Shown here: piece after piece, positions 6,715-55,392 of the stretch | Layout: every line of letters starts with the position of its first letter | Position numbering within the stretch: the first letter of the stretch is position 1 | NCBI GenBank assembly: GCA_043802665.1 | Contig: JAZDKW010000010.1 | Coordinates: 4,024-68,023, forward strand | Length of the DNA stretch: 64,000 bases | Direction of reading: 5' to 3' | Source: Patescibacteria group bacterium | Lineage (GTDB): Bacteria; Patescibacteriota; Kazan-3B-28; UBA10110 | Notes under the pieces: generated by a model | Told to the model about the DNA's origin: nothing | The model's input: the letters and a program-made list of their open reading frames with translations, nothing else | The model's database searches: none | Position numbers and translations under genes: made by a program

Positions 6715-7893
6715 TTATTTTTTGTTCTTTTTGTGTACACCGTTTAGCCCCGGATTTTGTCTAATAATTTTCAGGTAAATTTTTATTAGCTTCCCGGCAA
6801 TTGCTTTGCTAGAAAATCTATGCGCCGTACGGCAAGCCGCCCGCGACAAACGGTAGCGTAGTGTCTTGTTCTGCAATAATTTATTAACCACTGCTATCGC
6901 TTCGTCTTGTGAATTGACCAAAAACCCATTTTGATTATTTTTGATTATTTCCGGCGCCACTCCTACTGGATAAGTCACAGGGATCAGTCCACAAGCCATT
7001 CCTTCCACTAAACTTAAGGAAAAACCTTCGTAGCGCGAAGGGATAAACAAAATACTTCCTGCCAAAGGACGAAGTAAGACAGGCAGACGGTCTTTCTTTA
7101 CATTAGTAAATAAAGCATGATTAGGTATGGCCCCACGCATCCAGTGGATTAATTTCTTGTTGGTGGTAATACAAAATGTCAATTTTTTGACATTAGGAAA
7201 TTGACGGTATAAATGCACCAGCCGATCCATGCCTTTGAGTTTTAAAGTAAAAGCATCATTTCCCAGCCGCCCCAAAAAAACAATGTCTGCCTGATCCCTA
7301 CATCTTTGAGCTCTTTTTGCTAACCAGTAATCCTCAATAGCATTGTGCACTAAATAAACTTTATTTTTATTTACTTTCATCGACAGGAGTTCTTGCTTGA
7401 CCGATTCTGACGTAGCAATCACAGCGGCCGCTCGCAAAGCCACATATTCTTCCACATCGGCAATATCCCGAAGTGGACGACGGGTTTTAATATCTAATTC
7501 CCCAATGGCTCCCTGTTTGCGCAAATCATACCAAGTTCTGCTGGTTTCCGCTTTTAACCTACGCGATAGAGGGACATTATTTAAAAACCCCTGGGTGGTT
7601 GACCCAAAGTGGCTTACTACCGGTCTATGAAAAGCCAAAAATGGCAACGGCGTGTATGTTGTACCCTGAATGATGTCAAATTTTAAAATTTCATTACGCT
7701 GTTCTAATAAAGAATAAAAAAATAGAATATTTTTCATACCGCCCAAGTAGACCGGAGTGTTAGTCAAAGATATGCGGGGATAAAAGTTTCTTATCTCTAC
7801 CCCCCGCTCTCTCAGTTTGGCAACCATTAAATCATTGATGTAATGAGCGCCTGTACCAATTTTCTTCTCATTGTGAATAAAAGCGATCTTCAT
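6715..7893 (-). CDS. Family 1 (GT4-type) glycosyltransferase.
   Basis: C-terminal EGFSLSLVEGMACGLIPV E-x7-E motif. Confidence 0.8.
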   Translation of the reverse strand: MKIAFIHNEKKIGTGAHYINDLMVAKLRERGVEIRNFYPRISLTNTPVYLGGMKNILFFYSLLEQRNEILKFDIIQGTTYTPLPFLAFHRPVVSHFGSTTQGFLNNVPLSRRLKAETSRTWYDLRKQGAIGELDIKTRRPLRDIADVEEYVALRAAAVIATSESVKQELLSMKVNKNKVYLVHNAIEDYWLAKRAQRCRDQADIVFLGRLGNDAFTLKLKGMDRLVHLYRQFPNVKKLTFCITTNKKLIHWMRGAIPNHALFTNVKKDRLPVLLRPLAGSILFIPSRYEGFSLSLVEGMACGLIPVTYPVGVAPEIIKNNQNGFLVNSQDEAIAVVNKLLQNKTLRYRLSRAACRTAHRFSSKAIAGKLIKIYLKIIRQNPGLNGVHKKNKK

Positions 7894-10190: not shown

Positions 10191-10225
10191 TTTTTTCATT
10201 CTCTAAAAAAGTTTACGGACAATTT

Positions 10226-10256
10226 CAACGGCTCAACCCGTTGAGCCGTTGAAATC
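10226..10256. repeat. Long palindrome TTCAACGGCTCAAC-cc-GTTGAGCCGTTGAA; family member 1.
   Basis: 11-15-bp arms read directly; a related palindrome is at 37316..37345. Confidence 0.6.
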
Positions 10257-10269
10257 TTGCTATAAATTC

Positions 10270-10383
10270 TGGCGGTGTGCGTTCGAAAAAATTCGAACCG
10301 ATTTCGCCCAAAATTTGTAGGGCGGGCGGAATTCCCCCCAGACCCCCCTTCCACCCGCCCGCAGAAGCGACCCTTTCGGATTG
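10270..10383. repeat. IR-a left copy (114 bp, perfect inverted repeat of 11542..11655). Begins with TGGCGG (the reverse complement of a tRNA 3' end) and contains an internal GC hairpin.
   Basis: Base-by-base comparison with the reverse complement of 11542..11655. Confidence 0.85.
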
Positions 10384-10421
10384 GACGATTTCAAGTTTTT
10401 CTTTGGCGGCAAATTCTTTTA

Positions 10422-11168
10422 TTATTCTTTTTGTGCATAACCAATATAACCCAATTTCGTATTTTTCCCGATACCAAATTTAAACTCACCTTTTTTTATT
10501 CCCGCTAATATTCCCGCTAGTATAAAACCTTTTGTTTCTATATTTTTTATATTATATTTTTGCATTAAAAAATTAAGTTCGTCTGGCTTGATGAATTTTT
10601 TCCATTCATGTATATCCACGTTTTCGCCTGATACCTTTAAAGTTTTAAATTGTTTCATCATAAAATAATTAAAAAACCAGTTCATAATTTTTGAAAGAAT
10701 AGTTCTATTTATAGTAAGATAACAAAATTTTCCGCCATGCTTTAGTACCCTTGAAGTTTCGCTTATTACTTTTTCAAGATTGTTTACATGTTCAAGACAG
10801 TCAGCGCAAACTACCACATCAAACGTATTATTTCCCATAGGAATATTTTCTGCAGAACCTACCCTGTAATCAATTTTCAAGTTATTTTTAAAGGCATGAT
10901 TTATTGCCACTTTTATAGCATTTTCAGAAATATCTATTCCAGTAATATTAGCATCTTTTTTAGCAAACTCTTCAGCTAAAAGTCCACCGCCACATCCCAT
11001 GTCTAAAATCTTTAATCCTTTTAATTCTCCAATTGCTTCACTGAAATAGGAAAATCTTACAGGATTCATTTGTTGAAGCGGGTTATTTTTAGTACTCCAC
11101 CAAAAATCATCTATCCGATTGTACATATTGTCTTTAACTATTTTATTTTCTTTAATCCATTTGTCCAT
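10422..11168 (-). CDS. Class I SAM-dependent methyltransferase (UbiG/SmtA-like small-molecule methyltransferase), AT-rich cargo gene.
   Basis: ILDMGCGGGLLAEEF (motif I) and FDVVVCADCLEHV; this stretch is visibly far more AT-rich than the flanks. Confidence 0.75.
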   Translation of the reverse strand: MDKWIKENKIVKDNMYNRIDDFWWSTKNNPLQQMNPVRFSYFSEAIGELKGLKILDMGCGGGLLAEEFAKKDANITGIDISENAIKVAINHAFKNNLKIDYRVGSAENIPMGNNTFDVVVCADCLEHVNNLEKVISETSRVLKHGGKFCYLTINRTILSKIMNWFFNYFMMKQFKTLKVSGENVDIHEWKKFIKPDELNFLMQKYNIKNIETKGFILAGILAGIKKGEFKFGIGKNTKLGYIGYAQKE

Positions 11169-11177
11169 ATGTTTATA

Positions 11178-11384
11178 TTATTTTAATAAATCCTCTATTG
11201 AAACGCCAAGAGATTTGGCTAATTTTGCCATAATAAGTACAGACGGCTTTTTAATAACATTGCTCTCAATCTTTGTAAGAGTAGTGTATTTCACGCCAGA
11301 TTTCTTGGCAAAATCCTCTTGGGATAATCCCTGCTTATTTCGGTACTTTTTTATATTTTCGCCTATGTTGATTTCTATTGCCAT
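11178..11384 (-). CDS. XRE-family helix-turn-helix transcriptional regulator.
   Basis: 68 aa with QGLSQEDFAKKSGVKYTTLTKIESN, the classic Cro/C1 HTH. Confidence 0.8.
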   Translation of the reverse strand: MAIEINIGENIKKYRNKQGLSQEDFAKKSGVKYTTLTKIESNVIKKPSVLIMAKLAKSLGVSIEDLLK

Positions 11385-11396
11385 ATTATCACTAAT

Positions 11397-11445
11397 TTGA
11401 TAGTATTAAAGTGTTATACTATCCTTTCAATATAATACTATCAAA
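11397..11445. promoter_or_regulatory. Operator-like array of half-sites GATAGTAT / ATACTATC (x2) overlapping a TTGATA-17-TAGTAT promoter for the XRE gene.
   Basis: Palindrome TTGATAGTAT-N9-ATACTATC plus a third half-site ATACTATCAA 13 bp further on, directly upstream of the XRE start. Confidence 0.5.
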
Positions 11446-11541
11446 TTTTATGAAAATAGTCCAATTAAAAATGAGGGAAGCCCGCTTTTGGCCCAAAATG
11501 AAATTCGAGCCGATATTTTTTCAGGTTCTTTGGCAGTTTTT

Positions 11542-11655
11542 CAATCCGAAAGGGTCGCTTCTGCGGGCGGGTGGAAGGGGGGTCTGGGGGGAATTCCGCC
11601 CGCCCTACAAATTTTGGGCGAAATCGGTTCGAATTTTTTCGAACGCACACCGCCA
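11542..11655. repeat. IR-a right copy (114 bp) ending in CCGCCA.
   Basis: Identical to the reverse complement of 10270..10383. Confidence 0.85.
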
Positions 11656-11656
11656 A

Positions 11657-11736
11657 TTGGGAAATGTCTTTGTTGGCTCGCCCTCTGCGAGGGCTCGCCA
11701 GCCGATTTTAAGCGCAAATCGGAATTTTTTATCTTT
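11657..11736. repeat. IR-b left copy (80 bp).
   Basis: Identical to the reverse complement of 13169..13248. Including CCGCCA, the match is 87 bp with one mismatch. Confidence 0.85.
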
Positions 11737-11806
11737 GCCCCGCTACTGCGGGGCTGGTCAAAAGCGGGCTTCCCGAATTTTCATTTTTAATTTTTAAGGA
11801 GAAACC

Positions 11807-13435
<1,629 letters not shown>

Positions 13436-14067
13436 ACGAACCAAAAATATTCAAATAAGAAATCACGCTTGGAACGCTGTATAAATAGATTCTTCTCCCT
13501 TCATCGGTGATGTGCGGATTTATCCCGACTTCCTTTAGGATCTTCGCTGTGGAAATAATCAGTTTTTTAGAAGAATTGGTGAAACAGAAACCAATATTAT
13601 GGTATGGCGCATTCCTTACAATATGGTTATGTATGAATAAGCAGCCATCTGTATCCACACATCCTCTGACAAATGCTTTCTGGTATTCAGGATTGTCATT
13701 TATCCATTTTGGAATATCAATTTGTTGAACAACTTTGTTCCCCCTTACTGCACCTTTACCGACTAGAAAATCTAATAGGTTGCTCCCCGAACAAATAAGA
13801 ACTAACGCATTTTGATTAGGCCTTTTTCTAATATACACGTTGATCTCAAATAATTTTCTTAAGAGTCTGTCAATGTACTGCGAATATTCCAGATCAGAAT
13901 TAGAGTTGAGGGTAATGACAAGTTGCCAATCATTGTTTATTCCTCCGTCACCAAAAATAATCCCAAATAATTCTGCCAGTTCCTTTGATTCGTTAGGAAT
14001 ATTAACAATTTTTCTGTGGCTTTTCTTAGGATATTTTAGTAACGAATAATCCATTGTTTAATAAATT

Positions 14068-37354: not shown

Positions 37355-37397
37355 GCGGGAGATTTTCCATTTTGGTGGACCGTACCGGATGATTTTC
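37355..37397. repeat. Direct duplicate of the tRNA-Ala 3' end plus part of its downstream hairpin (19 bp exact TGGTGGACCGTACCGGAT).
   Basis: Identical to 37537..37555; flanks GGGAGATTTTCCATTTTGG versus GGGGAGTTTTTCATTCTGG. Confidence 0.6.
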
Positions 37398-37502: not shown

Positions 37503-37536
37503 GAATGAAAATCTCCCGTCGGGGAGTTTTTCATTC
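37503..37536. terminator. Perfect hairpin immediately 3' of tRNA-Ala.
   Basis: GAATGAAAATCTCCCGtcGGGGAGTTTTTCATTC. Confidence 0.5.
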
Positions 37537-37613
37537 TGGTGGACCGTACCGGATTCGAACCGGTGACCTCTACGATGCCATCGTAGCGCTCTACCAAGCT
37601 AAGCTAACGGCCC
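37537..37613 (-). tRNA. tRNA-Ala (anticodon GGC) with the G3:U70 identity pair.
   Basis: Manual fold: GGGCCGT/ACGGTCC acceptor, D-arm GCTT…GAGC, anticodon stem CTACG/CGTAG with loop ATGGCAT, T-arm ACCGGTTCGAATCCGGT, ACCA. Confidence 0.82.
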
Positions 37614-54845: not shown

Positions 54846-54938
54846 TGGCGGTGAGGGAGGGATTCGAACCCTCGCGGGGAATTGCTTCCCCCTACCGGTT
54901 TAGCAAACCAGCCCCTTCAGCCTCTTGGGTACCTCACC
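54846..54938 (-). tRNA. tRNA-Ser (anticodon GCT).
   Basis: GGTGAGG-TA-CCC-AAGAGGCTGAA-GGG-G-CTGGT-TTGCTAA-ACCGG-[variable hairpin]-GAGGGTTCGAATCCCTC-CCTCACC-GCCA. Confidence 0.85.
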
Positions 54939-55239: not shown

Positions 55240-55392
55240 GCCCCGCCTGCCCCGCGTATGCTGGGGCGAATGCCGGGGCGAACCCTCGCGGGGAATTGCT
55301 TCCCCCTACCGGTTTAGCAAACCAGCCCCTTCACGTCCTGCGTATGCGGGACAGCCTCTTGCCCCACATGCACGGGGTGCAGGTACCTCACC
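55240..55392 (-). pseudogene. Degenerate copy of tRNA-Ser(GCT): a 53-nt identical core with two roughly 20-nt GC hairpins inserted in the D-arm and the 3' T-loop/acceptor replaced by a third hairpin.
   Basis: 55281..55333 matches 54865..54917 exactly; insertions CGTCCTGCGTATGCGGGACA and CCCCACATGCACGGGGTGCA; the 3' end is replaced by …CCCCGCGTATGCTGGGG…. Confidence 0.45.

Follow-up and report, generated by a model that had tools for sequence, protein, structure and literature searches.

A UbiG-like methyltransferase and its XRE regulator in the cargo module of a probable serine recombinase element inserted at tRNA-Ser(GGA) in a Patescibacteria MAG

The region 10422-11460 of the window, i.e. 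the whole 64-kb stretch of DNA analysed here, is best read as the cargo-and-control module of an integrative element of about 3 kb. As judged from its sequence, the element would be driven by a serine recombinase, inserted at a tRNA-Ser(GGA) gene, and carry an exchangeable payload together with a constant XRE regulator, and we give this reading a probability of about 0.8. The element spans positions 10270-13255 of a Patescibacteria MAG and lies between the 3' CCA end of the tRNA-Ser(GGA) and a hairpin, probably the original tRNA-Ser terminator, which is now found just beyond the attR-type end (Table 1). The location on a mobile element that an earlier note had proposed for the methyltransferase was borne out. 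What defines the locus had been missed there: the inverted repeats of 114 and 87 nt, the large serine recombinase, and tRNA-Ser as the target.

Table 1. Features of the element and its surroundings, with their positions in the window.
Feature	Position	Strand	Evidence or description
Host hairpin, 16-nt arms	10222..10255		Inverted repeat I13, sequence
Arm A	10270..10383		114 nt, 100% complementary to 11542-11655; junction alignment; fold
Piece B	10384..10419		36 nt, 100% complementary to 11891-11926
UbiG-like class I SAM-dependent methyltransferase, 248 aa	10422..11168	-	Pfam, NCBIfam, PDB, GC/GC3
XRE/HTH_3 regulator, 68 aa, first gene of the cargo operon	11178..11384	-	Pfam; PADLOC control-protein models
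Proximal operator box ATACTATCAA (gene strand)	11397..11406		Between promoter and XRE start codon
Middle box GGATAGTAT (gene strand)	11416..11424		Coincides with candidate -10 TAGTAT; unconserved in relatives
Distal operator box TTGATAGTAT (gene strand)	11435..11444		Overlaps candidate -35 TTGATA
Motif I4L (GGGAAGCCCGCTTTTGGCC...)	11454..11493		Resembles 11756-11795, immediately 5' of the recombinase gene
Piece E	11494-11520		Inverted copy of recombinase nt 1336-1362
Piece F	11522-11541		Inverted copy of recombinase nt 138-157
Arm A'	11542..11655		Inverted copy of A
Arm C	11650..11736		87 nt, 99% complementary to 13169-13255
Large serine recombinase ORF, 542 aa as integrated	11807..13435	+	Resolvase, Recombinase and Zn_ribbon_recom domains
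B'-x-F' in recombinase gene	11891..11963	+	x = 11927-11943, 17-nt palindrome GCCTCGCTTAGCGAGGC
E' and arm C'	E' 13142-13168; C' 13169-13255		Encode recombinase C-terminus
tRNA-Ser(GGA), integration target	13250..13339	-	ARAGORN; Rfam 55 bits

The repeats are inverted and nested, the pair A/A' being 114 nt long with 100% identity, C/C' 87 nt with 99% identity, B/B' 36 nt, E/E' 27 nt and F/F' 20 nt. No further copies of the A, B, C, E or F repeats were found elsewhere in the 64-kb window. The perfect pair A/A' brackets the cargo module and C/C' the recombinase. Arm A starts with the core TGGCGG (10270-10275), includes a GC-rich hairpin with the loop TTCCCCCCAGACCCCCC, and forms together with the host flank an attR-type junction. 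The 3' part of arm A' resembles a tRNA T-arm (GGTTCGAAT...CCGCCA), arm C includes a terminator-like hairpin (11702-11722), and E' and arm C' together with the tRNA end form an attL-type junction. On the tRNA-forward strand, tRNA-CCGCCA-C corresponds to attL, A'-CCGCCA-host to attR, and A'-CCGCCA-C to an inverted junction of the attP type. In the junction alignment all three have in common CCGCCA, the 3' end of the tRNA-Ser(GGA), and they exchange their flanks exactly as attL, attR and attP would. The junction of the empty site (attB) is predicted as ...CCCTCTCCGCCAGAATTTATAGCAAG... / ...CTCTCCGCCAGAATTTATAGC....

According to the proposed mechanism, the large serine recombinase would integrate and excise the element via the 6-nt core CCGCCA. 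The third, inverted attP-type junction splits the element into a recombinase module and a cargo module. Because the inverted A'-CCGCCA-C lies between the two modules, each of them is bracketed by long and near-identical inverted repeats. Also the module boundaries include inverted copies of segments of the recombinase gene. Piece B, the boundary of the cargo slot adjoining arm A, corresponds to nucleotides 85-120 of that gene and is kept at the same place in the relatives, several of which have an insert of 36-40 nt splitting it. Pieces E and F are joined to each other and adjoin arm A', and the identical junction was present in at least 63 metagenome contigs.

The recombinase matched PF00239 (E 2.9e-19), PF07508 (E 3.1e-15) and PF13408 (E 1.6e-6), and its N-terminus MKYFIYTRKST includes what we take to be the usual R-x-S serine. 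The final ca. 90 amino acids of the integrated ORF are encoded by C' and the tRNA antisense, and the tail differs in the attP context. The segment B'-x-F' is the part of the gene with the strongest synonymous constraint: in codons of invariant residues the third-position entropy was 0.28 inside the segment and 1.02 outside it (p = 1.7e-6). Relatives with 57-96% identity were present in 235 species genomes, and no recombinase of the reference phages or plasmids exceeds 30% identity to it. As IMG/VR, the reference phages and the plasmids included no close relatives, no vehicle of transfer was identified. An exact-sequence look-up of the recombinase of the window gave no match. Besides the XRE gene and the cargo, the element includes no candidate ORF for a recombination directionality factor; to our knowledge such factors have no common signature.

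The family with this mirror-image layout and swappable cargo slot is widespread, and no prior description of it was found in the searchable literature. Both arms were present at 24 genome loci, and the same layout was found in at least 63 of 120 metagenome contigs; a locus of a different genome (L004) repeats this layout, its cargo being an MFS transporter. The hosts include Patescibacteria, Kiritimatiellia, Nitrospira, Thermodesulfovibrio, Omnitrophota and others, among them the isolate Schleiferia thermophila DSM 21410. A circular contig of a whole element was found once (L028; 4,636 nt with a 51-nt terminal direct repeat), and it has a C'-A junction together with an internal A'. Homology between elements extends no further than the XRE stop codon at one end and piece B at the other, and the slot between them ranges from 1.0 to 5.6 kb. 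In most elements the cargo starts only a few nucleotides past the XRE stop codon, which fits an operon. Restriction-modification systems follow the XRE gene in eight of the 24 genome loci, and the systems found in the slots include NgoPII with Dcm, CfrBI with an MTase, TdeIII with an MTase, and type I and type IIG systems. The other slot contents include a P-type ATPase, a Na/Ca exchanger, a multicopper oxidase, a polyprenyl synthetase, HNH and HD proteins, and a UvrA-like protein.

The methyltransferase is a rare and recently acquired cargo of this family. The earlier note had described the methyltransferase and regulator region as more AT-rich than its flanks and consistent with a foreign origin, and both the GC windows and the GC3 values agree with this. 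In 200-nt windows the GC content was 0.26-0.35 over positions 10400-11500 compared with 0.42-0.54 in the immediate flanks. With a GC content of 0.295 the methyltransferase gene is the most AT-rich part of the 64-kb window, falling within the lowest 0.2% of its 747-nt windows (mean 0.434, sd 0.030). Its GC3 is 0.230 (z = -5.6), whereas the host ORFs, represented by 30 ORFs of at least 200 aa, have 0.439 +/- 0.038 with a minimum of 0.371; the value is also far under those of the element backbone, i.e. the XRE gene (0.353, z = -2.3) and the recombinase gene (0.385, z = -1.4). Among 211 related loci the methyltransferase is carried only by L085-L087, and the cassette of XRE and methyltransferase was also present in three other metagenomes. 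Database look-ups traced a methyltransferase with 98.8% identity, and an exact-sequence look-up of the window's own gave no match. The nearest relative outside the elements (L003) has 88% nucleotide identity across the gene only, and this copy forms a low-GC island in an unrelated contig. At ca. 60% identity the relatives are genes that stand alone in unrelated bacteria, including CPR, and in DPANN archaea.

The profile-HMM assignment that had been suggested to Methyltransf_11, 25 and 23 was obtained, together with a match to Methyltransf_31 (E 6e-27 to 6e-19 for the four). The methyltransferase reached 154.4 bits against the UbiG model TIGR01983, the best PDB relative was UbiG of E. coli (4kdc, E 1.3e-29), and the SAM-binding motif ILDMGCGGGLLAEE was found in the sequence. 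None of the 19 Pfam matches was to the DNA-methylase families N6_N4_Mtase, N6_Mtase or C-5 DNA_methylase, the methyltransferase sequence includes neither a DPPY/NPPY nor a PCQ motif, and its match to the PADLOC oMTase model was negligible (E 3e-4). These results are in line with the earlier assignment to the class I small-molecule type and not to DNA methyltransferases, and nothing was found in support of the toxin-like or epigenetic role also considered there. The enzyme would most likely O-methylate a small hydroxylated (phenolic) compound, not DNA.

The XRE regulator matched HTH_3 (PF01381, E 1.1e-17) and the Control_protein model of PADLOC (E 4.6e-11), and its PDB relatives include SinR and the 434 repressor. 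It had been counted as cargo, and the comparison of loci instead shows that it is a conserved backbone gene and that only the downstream gene is exchanged: L001 and L002 have an identical XRE protein followed by another gene, and the regulator is present in nearly all cargo slots of the family. No Shine-Dalgarno sequence was visible for the XRE or the methyltransferase gene.

An operator overlapping the XRE gene's own promoter had been predicted, and the prediction is backed by palindromic covariation throughout the family. The outer boxes form a perfect inverted pair of the 10-mer TTGATAGTAT (11397-11406 on the plus and 11435-11444 on the minus strand). They hold their position and co-vary as palindromes, being TTGATAGTAT/ATACTATCAA in the window and TTGGTAGTAT/ATACTACCAA or TTGATATCAT/ATGATATCAA in relatives, and the boxes of an XRE subtype with another recognition helix are TATAGTAGT/ACTACTATA. 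An inverted box pair was found upstream of 70 of the 90 XRE genes, while shuffled controls gave a mean of 36 and a maximum of 48. Of the three half-sites described earlier, GATAGTAT at 11399-11406 and the first ATACTATC at 11416-11423 were found as described, and the second ATACTATC (11435-11442) begins at 11435 and not at 11436. The operator of three half-sites was rejected, since the middle box is not kept in the relatives, not even beside the identical XRE protein (L002 has GATAGCCT). The conserved operator consists of the two outer inverted boxes, and the middle box may simply be the -10 region. The centres of the outer boxes lie ca. 38 bp apart, a wide spacing for one dimer. The promoter scan recovered the proposed TTGATA-17-TAGTAT on the minus strand (11444..11416) with nine of 12 matches, but TTTTCA-16-TATATT (11456..11429) had an equal score of 9/12; with this alternative the distal box falls between the -35 TTTTCA and the -10 TATATT. 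The XRE protein would bind both inverted 10-bp boxes over its own promoter and would thereby autoregulate the XRE-cargo operon in the manner of restriction-modification controller (C) proteins. A controller role over a linked restriction endonuclease has no counterpart in the window, the downstream gene being UbiG-like and not an endonuclease.

The XRE protein could also be mainly a mobility or immunity repressor of recombinase expression or excision, similar to phage CI or ImmR, with the cargo co-transcribed; we regard this as somewhat unlikely, and it is compatible with the main explanation. It would agree with the retention of the XRE gene whatever the cargo, with its divergent orientation from the recombinase gene in 23 of the 24 genome loci, and with the motif GGYCAAAAGCGGGCTTCCC... 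common to the upstream regions of both genes. However, the element has the operator box only at the XRE promoter and none near the recombinase gene, ca. 420 nt with the whole A'-C junction and the terminator-like hairpin separate the two genes, and the short distance from the XRE stop codon to the cargo is operon-like. Another explanation, which we hold to be unlikely, is that the cargo module is a programmed invertible switch, the flip between A and A' coupling and uncoupling the XRE-cargo transcript and the recombinase gene. Besides the perfect 114-nt arms around the module, it is favoured by the single locus with the opposite module orientation (L016), where the cargo is co-directional with the recombinase, and by arms that are 96-100% identical within elements (one 94%) and 74-98% between them, indicating frequent arm exchange. 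The decayed loci L024, L029, L049 and L056 are as well what would be expected from a flip followed by deletion between the now direct B' copies. Nevertheless, the other 23 of the 24 genome loci share one orientation, which makes inversion a rare event at most in consensus assemblies, and the classified metagenome contigs included no intact flipped copy. The flipped state also seems prone to loss of the 5' end of the recombinase gene, and RecA-mediated exchange between 114-nt repeats could explain the facts without a switch function.

The remaining alternatives concern the methyltransferase and the assembly. The regulator and the methyltransferase could form a pair of their own that has nothing to do with the recombinase, such as an orphan methylase of epigenetic or defence function and the protein that controls it. 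The XRE protein does match restriction-modification controller models, and the methyltransferase has a partial match to the methyltransferase domain of PADLOC mad2, but this match is confined to the generic SAM-binding domain (positions 281-420 of the 492 in the profile), the methyltransferase groups with UbiG without matching a DNA-methylase family, and the pair lies inside repeats common to the recombinase module in a layout kept in dozens of elements; the explanation is very improbable. Scarcely credible is also a genuine UbiG of host quinone biosynthesis, i.e. a core metabolic gene. The score does exceed the curated equivalog cutoff of TIGR01983 (102.95), but it is at odds with the expected absence of quinone biosynthesis in Patescibacteria, which, as far as we know, are generally held to lack respiratory quinone synthesis. 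Furthermore, the composition is extreme compared with the host, the gene lies in the cargo slot of a mobile element and is absent from ca. 200 other elements, and its nearest relative is in an unrelated context. Since the host is a Patescibacteria MAG and no quinone pathway neighbours were seen within the 64-kb window, the methyltransferase was not classified as a functional UbiG, and an automated 'UbiG' label on mobile-element cargo in such a MAG should not be taken as quinone biosynthesis. That the nested inverted repeats are an assembly artefact, a fold-back or a chimeric join, is suggested by their perfection and by the many related contigs that terminate within arm A'. The architecture recurs, however, in independent assemblies from many laboratories and assemblers, with element-specific differences and different cargo, and it is carried by contigs of 100-690 kb and by an isolate genome; also the window's own C/C' and E/E' have one differing position each. 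An artefact was rejected on these grounds, its chance being close to nil.

The origin of the layout was approached through several routes. Nested insertion into the palindrome x, head-to-head dimers and short-repeat inversion were considered, and none of them yields the architecture in one step. Only decayed forms could be derived, either by a flip with deletion between B' copies or by an F/F' inversion with deletion between C copies. A further reading, which we find distinctly unlikely, is that the module of XRE and cargo is a separately mobilisable cassette that recombines at a hairpin with the recombinase-derived pieces B' and F' on its two sides; the site arrangement may be like that of the constrained B'-palindrome-F' in the recombinase gene. 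Besides integrating at tRNA genes and inverting modules, the recombinase would then perform cassette exchange with an integron-like outcome, and this, if true, would explain very diverse cargo on a near-constant backbone. In its favour, a circular or tandem contig of 1,378 nt (L203) consists of one module that B'-[35-bp-stem hairpin]-F' closes, direct copies of B' flank some modules (L085), B' includes GCCGCCA, as in the integration core, and the segment B'-x-F' has the strong synonymous constraint given above. As the B'-hairpin-F' configuration was found in one of 211 loci, the cassette reading stays a lead. Tandem cassette arrays were rejected: the slots of L043 and L057 have second XRE fragments without the expected inter-cassette sites.

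Among known systems, the element shares with large serine recombinase elements (Bxb1, phiC31, CcrAB of SCCmec, TnpX of Tn4451) the domain architecture of the recombinase, attL, attR and attP junctions that follow the hybrid logic around a short core common to all, and a single integration target; the circular contig L028 may correspond to their circular form. It differs from them in that the family is only 3-8 kb in size and has no phage, conjugation or replication genes, and in having a second, inverted attP-type junction inside, with 114/87-nt module repeats evolving in concert. Further differences are the inverted copies of three recombinase-gene segments at the module boundaries, the nucleotide constraint on the matching sites within the gene, and no recognised directionality factor. 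Tycheposons likewise target tRNA genes in streamlined genomes and carry modular cargo including defence and niche-adaptation genes. In contrast to the present elements, 910 of 937 Tycheposons use tyrosine recombinases and many have replication genes (Hackl et al., bioRxiv 10.1101/2020.12.28.424599), whereas the elements described here have a large serine recombinase, no replication module, a fixed XRE regulator and the inverted-repeat layout.

As in the Hin and Gin segments, a segment bracketed by inverted repeats lies beside a serine recombinase gene; the two orientations are each seen when genomes are compared (L016 against 23 others). The recombinase is, however, a large one (ca. 490-540 aa) instead of a small invertase ending in an HTH, the repeats exceed hix/gix four- to fivefold in length and double as integration sites, and the family is nearly always in one orientation. 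The XRE protein resembles the restriction-modification C proteins as a small XRE-type HTH protein encoded first in its operon, with palindromic boxes over its own promoter. It differs from them in belonging to a mobile element and in being kept with cargo other than restriction-modification systems. The C-box consensus of C proteins is of the GACT...AGTC type, unlike the widely spaced XRE box TTGATAGTAT. The methyltransferase shares with the UbiG/Coq3 O-methyltransferases the class I Rossmann fold and the SAM motif LDMGCGGG, but its gene stands alone, was acquired horizontally and is carried by a mobile element of a Patescibacteria host. Integrons were considered because hairpin-bearing boundaries exist. 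This comparison, which involves the tyrosine recombinase IntI, promoterless cassettes and attC hairpins, was rejected, as the element uses a serine recombinase and its module comes with a promoter and a regulator.

The pair of methyltransferase and XRE regulator is modest alone. The element family to which it led is compact, with members in at least 235 species-representative genomes and in over 120 metagenome contigs. In many phyla this family brings restriction-modification systems, transporters and enzymes to the 3' ends of tRNA genes, and its recipients include the genome-reduced Patescibacteria, whose routes of gene flow are poorly known. The recombinase is a candidate genetic tool: it is a large serine recombinase from nature whose attP and attB are readable, and it apparently works in lineages for which few tools exist. 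Among cultured hosts, Schleiferia thermophila DSM 21410 has a copy of the element at about 208-215 kb of NZ_QPJS01000004.1. The layout in mirror image, the homogenisation of the arms and the cis-sites within the gene bear on how a serine integrase sets direction, and perhaps controls inversion, when no directionality factor can be recognised.

The methyltransferase and XRE genes are enclosed by nested inverted repeats (A, B, C, E and F), of which no further copies were found anywhere in the window, and they share these repeats with the gene of a large serine recombinase, the ORF of which contains B', F' and E'. On the tRNA-forward strand the order is tRNA-CCGCCA-C-(recombinase, antisense)-C'-TGGCGG-A-F'-E'-operator-XRE-methyltransferase-B'-A'-CCGCCA-host hairpin. 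When the three CCGCCA junctions were aligned, their flanks swapped as for attL (tRNA/C), attR (A'/host) and attP (A'/C), and the end of A' resembles a tRNA T-arm (GGTTCGAAT...CCGCCA). The flank swap and the tRNA mimicry together argue that the ca. 3 kb between 10270 and 13255 are an insertion between the CCA end of tRNA-Ser and the host hairpin, which probably is the former terminator of the tRNA. An unusual trait of the element is the third, inverted attP-type junction at its centre. In an attP context, seen in the related tRNA-Trp-adjoining element L073, the recombinase ORF continues through C' into A and ends in ...FPNWRCAFEKIRTEFAKN, whereas in the window it continues into the antisense of the tRNA, so integration alters the recombinase tail.

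Features of the element and its target, in positions of the window
Feature	Position	Orientation or strand	Remarks
A / A'	10270-10383 / 11542-11655	inverted	114 nt, 100%
B / B'	10384-10419 / 11891-11926	inverted	36 nt
Methyltransferase ORF	10422..11168	(-)	248 aa
XRE ORF	11178..11384	(-)	68 aa
E / E'	11494-11520 / 13142-13168	inverted	27 nt
F / F'	11522-11541 / 11944-11963	inverted	20 nt
C / C'	11650-11736 / 13169-13255	inverted	87 nt, 99%
Large serine recombinase ORF	11807..13435		Resolvase, Recombinase and Zn-ribbon domains (Pfam)
tRNA-Ser(GGA)	13250-13339	(-)	adjoined by C'

Both ORFs of the pair were found where the earlier note had placed them, and the AT-richness it had noticed is pronounced. 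In 200-nt windows the GC content is 0.26-0.35 across 10400-11500 and 0.42-0.54 in both flanks. The methyltransferase gene (GC 0.295) falls within the lowest 0.2% of all 747-nt windows in the 64 kb (mean 0.434, sd 0.030), the global minimum lying inside it, and its GC3 is 0.230 against 0.439 +/- 0.038 (minimum 0.371) in 30 host ORFs (z = -5.6). GC3 is milder in the XRE (0.353) and recombinase (0.385) genes. In a Pfam profile search the methyltransferase matched Methyltransf_11/31/25/23 and the XRE protein HTH_3. Judged by composition and by the non-core phylogenetic context, as the note had proposed, the view of the methyltransferase as foreign cargo stands. Low GC (0.356, z = -4.2) was also recorded for a free-standing LAGLIDADG_3 endonuclease ORF of 245 aa at 13317-14054 (-), directly upstream of tRNA-Ser(GGA) and overlapping its 5' end.

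Two other tRNA-linked features were present in the window. An exact 55-nt repeat (54865-54919 and 55279-55333, 414 nt apart), with one copy inside tRNA-Ser(GCT) (54846-54938, minus strand), could be an att scar left by another tRNA-targeting element that has since decayed. A 35-nt direct repeat of 86% identity (37356-37390 and 37520-37554) overlaps the 3' end of tRNA-Ala(GGC), with its second copy 164 nt downstream, and looks like another integration scar.

Recombinase relatives of 57-96% identity were detected in 235 species-representative genomes, the majority of them Patescibacteria. The other hosts were MAGs named Kiritimatiellia, Caldisericales, Nitrospira, Thermodesulfovibrio, Brocadia, Omnitrophota and Gammaproteobacteria, and one isolate, Schleiferia thermophila DSM 21410; no relatives of more than 30% identity were found in reference phages, plasmids or IMG/VR. 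The targets are tRNA-Ser GGA, TGA or GCT, once tRNA-Trp, always with a ...CGCCA end. L004, from another genome, repeats the order of A/A', C/C', B, E, F and tRNA-Ser(GGA), with an MFS transporter in place of the methyltransferase. Both arms were present in 24 of the 80 genome loci fetched, 23 of these oriented as in the window and one (L016) with a flipped cargo module, and the F'-E' junction occurs in at least 120 metagenome contigs, at least 63 of which have the layout of the window. The layout thus is no artefact but a conserved design. Arm identity is 96-100% within an element (one 94%) but only 74-98% between elements; the arms therefore evolve in concert. A contig of 4,636 nt (L028) with a 51-nt terminal direct repeat carries a C'-A junction and an internal A', and looks like an excised circle of the element. 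In L005, the element is adjoined by a 228-nt inverted repeat (98.7%; 7441-7668 and 12109-12336), and 5 kb downstream there is another recombinase-like gene (12738-13362; 67% nucleotide identity), which suggests two related elements at one locus.

The gene following the XRE varies. Two ENA contigs (L001 and L002) encode an identical XRE protein and are 90-94% identical to the window in nucleotides through the operator, but they have a small membrane protein after the XRE gene and no methyltransferase at that position. Their homology to the window ends at the XRE stop codon, and the homology of L004 is bounded by the XRE stop and by B. These boundaries mark the XRE as a backbone gene and the methyltransferase as payload. 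Among the 24 two-arm loci the slot measures 1.0-5.6 kb, with an XRE gene, of five sequence subtypes, at its operator end in nearly all (exception L016) and the next gene beginning a few nt past it. According to Pfam, eight of the 24 carry restriction-modification cargo (NgoPII with C5 methylase, CfrBI with N4/N6 methylase, TdeIII with methylase, type I M and S with Fic, type IIG, and others); further cargo includes a UvrA-like ATPase, P-type ATPase, Na/Ca exchanger, multicopper oxidase, polyprenyl synthetase, HD and HNH proteins, and several proteins without a family match. The slot of L073 (4465-6114) holds, by eye, a different, restriction-modification controller-like XRE type, followed by an IS-type transposase-like ORF of 416 aa. 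The methyltransferase of the window recurred in only three of 211 loci (L085-L087, short metagenome contigs; 98.8% identity, tblastn), each time accompanied by the same XRE, and is therefore a rare payload of one sub-lineage.

On the UbiG equivalog model the methyltransferase reached 154 bits (cutoff 103), with every other NCBIfam model far behind, and it had no DNA-methylase family match in Pfam, in line with the class I, non-DNA enzyme that the earlier note had expected. Its best solved relative in the PDB is E. coli UbiG (E 1.3e-29; next best family 9.3e-13), and its PADLOC match, to mad2, takes in only the generic methyltransferase domain of that model. The host MAG belongs to the Patescibacteria, which are generally considered to be without quinone biosynthesis. 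The enzyme is probably a small-molecule O-methyltransferase with a phenolic substrate. The closest relative outside the elements (L003; 84% identical in protein and 88% in nucleotides, the latter limited to the gene) is itself a low-GC island (0.31 vs 0.42) amid unrelated genes, and relatives of about 60% identity, from an unrelated bacterium and from Nanoarchaeota, are stand-alone genes.

Upstream of the XRE gene, GATAGTAT is found at 11399 and ATACTATC at 11416 and 11435, so that only the third box had been misplaced earlier, at 11436. The outer two extend into a perfect inverted 10-mer, TTGATAGTAT. The three-half-site operator proposed for the boxes does not hold, as the middle box is not conserved: L002, with its identical XRE protein, has GATAGCCT at that position. 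The distal box and the inverted proximal box keep their positions in relatives, and their sequences change in a compensatory way: TTGATAGTAT and ATACTATCAA, respectively, in the window, L039 and L044, TTGGTAGTAT and ATACTACCAA in L057, TTGATATCAT and ATGATATCAA in L034, and TATAGTAGT and ACTACTATA in L030 and L031, which have an XRE subtype with a different recognition helix. An inverted 9-mer pair (at most one mismatch, spacer 15-45 nt) was present upstream of the XRE in 70 of 90 modules; shuffled controls gave 36 on average and at most 48. The suggested promoter TTGATA-17-TAGTAT was recovered with a 9/12 match, but TTTTCA-16-TATATT scores equally, and in relatives its hexamers are conserved no less well. 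In PADLOC the XRE matches models for the controller proteins of restriction-modification systems (E 4.6e-11), and in the PDB it matches SinR and the 434 repressor. In our reading it would be an element-encoded, C-protein-like autoregulator setting the expression of any gene in the slot. No XRE boxes were apparent near the recombinase gene when the element was searched; a role in mobility control is conceivable.

The recombinase gene itself contains DNA sites. B'-x-F', where x is the palindrome GCCTCGCTTAGCGAGGC, spans codons 29-52 and shows the strongest synonymous constraint in the gene, the third-position entropy of invariant-residue codons being 0.28 there and 1.02 elsewhere (p = 1.7e-6, 47 sequences). 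E' is likewise constrained, and this argues for both being cis-acting. Inverted copies of these sites are placed at the module boundaries, and B' contains the integration core GCCGCCA. Two types of recurrent decayed derivatives were found. In L024, L029, L049 and L056, XRE-cargo-B'-x-F' is followed by a recombinase lacking its first 84 nt, which a flip and then a deletion between direct B' copies would give; in L085, L092, L124, L130, L146, L150 and L155, recombinase nt 1-157 are fused to E', as would result from F/F' inversion and then deletion between direct C copies. A 1,466-nt contig (L203; Ga0209542_10272938, 1-1466) has an 88-nt terminal direct repeat, implying a circle or tandem of 1,378 nt, and consists of a single XRE-cargo module closed by B'-hairpin-F'; the inner halves of A' and A form this hairpin, with its perfect 35-bp stem. 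This configuration, present in one of the 211 loci, is possibly a cassette circle. A one-step derivation of the architecture from a simple element was attempted, and none fits. In L004, L044, L060, L085 and L086 the B copy beside arm A is split by a 36-40-nt insert next to its TGGCGG, as if the site were a recombination hot spot. Upstream of the XRE module of L001, without recombinase pieces, two tandem hairpins (600-760) have differing stems but share their loop (AATTCCCCCCAAACCCCCCTTCC type) with the core of arm A; the constant loop and variable stems suggest a recognised structure.

The element works like serine-integrase islands and is akin to tycheposons in tRNA targeting and modular cargo. 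Tycheposons are, however, overwhelmingly tyrosine-recombinase elements, often with replication genes (bioRxiv 10.1101/2020.12.28.424599). The element differs from both systems in its minimal size, fixed XRE controller, internal inverted attP-type junction, long homogenised arms and recombinase-internal sites, and no earlier description of the family was found in the literature searched. The cultured Schleiferia thermophila DSM 21410 (L022, NZ_QPJS01000004.1) contains a complete element, the two 125-nt arms of which are 100% identical, and its slot holds TdeIII restriction-modification cargo and two opposite-strand ORFs resembling, by eye, an IS-type transposase. The element could be studied experimentally in this host.
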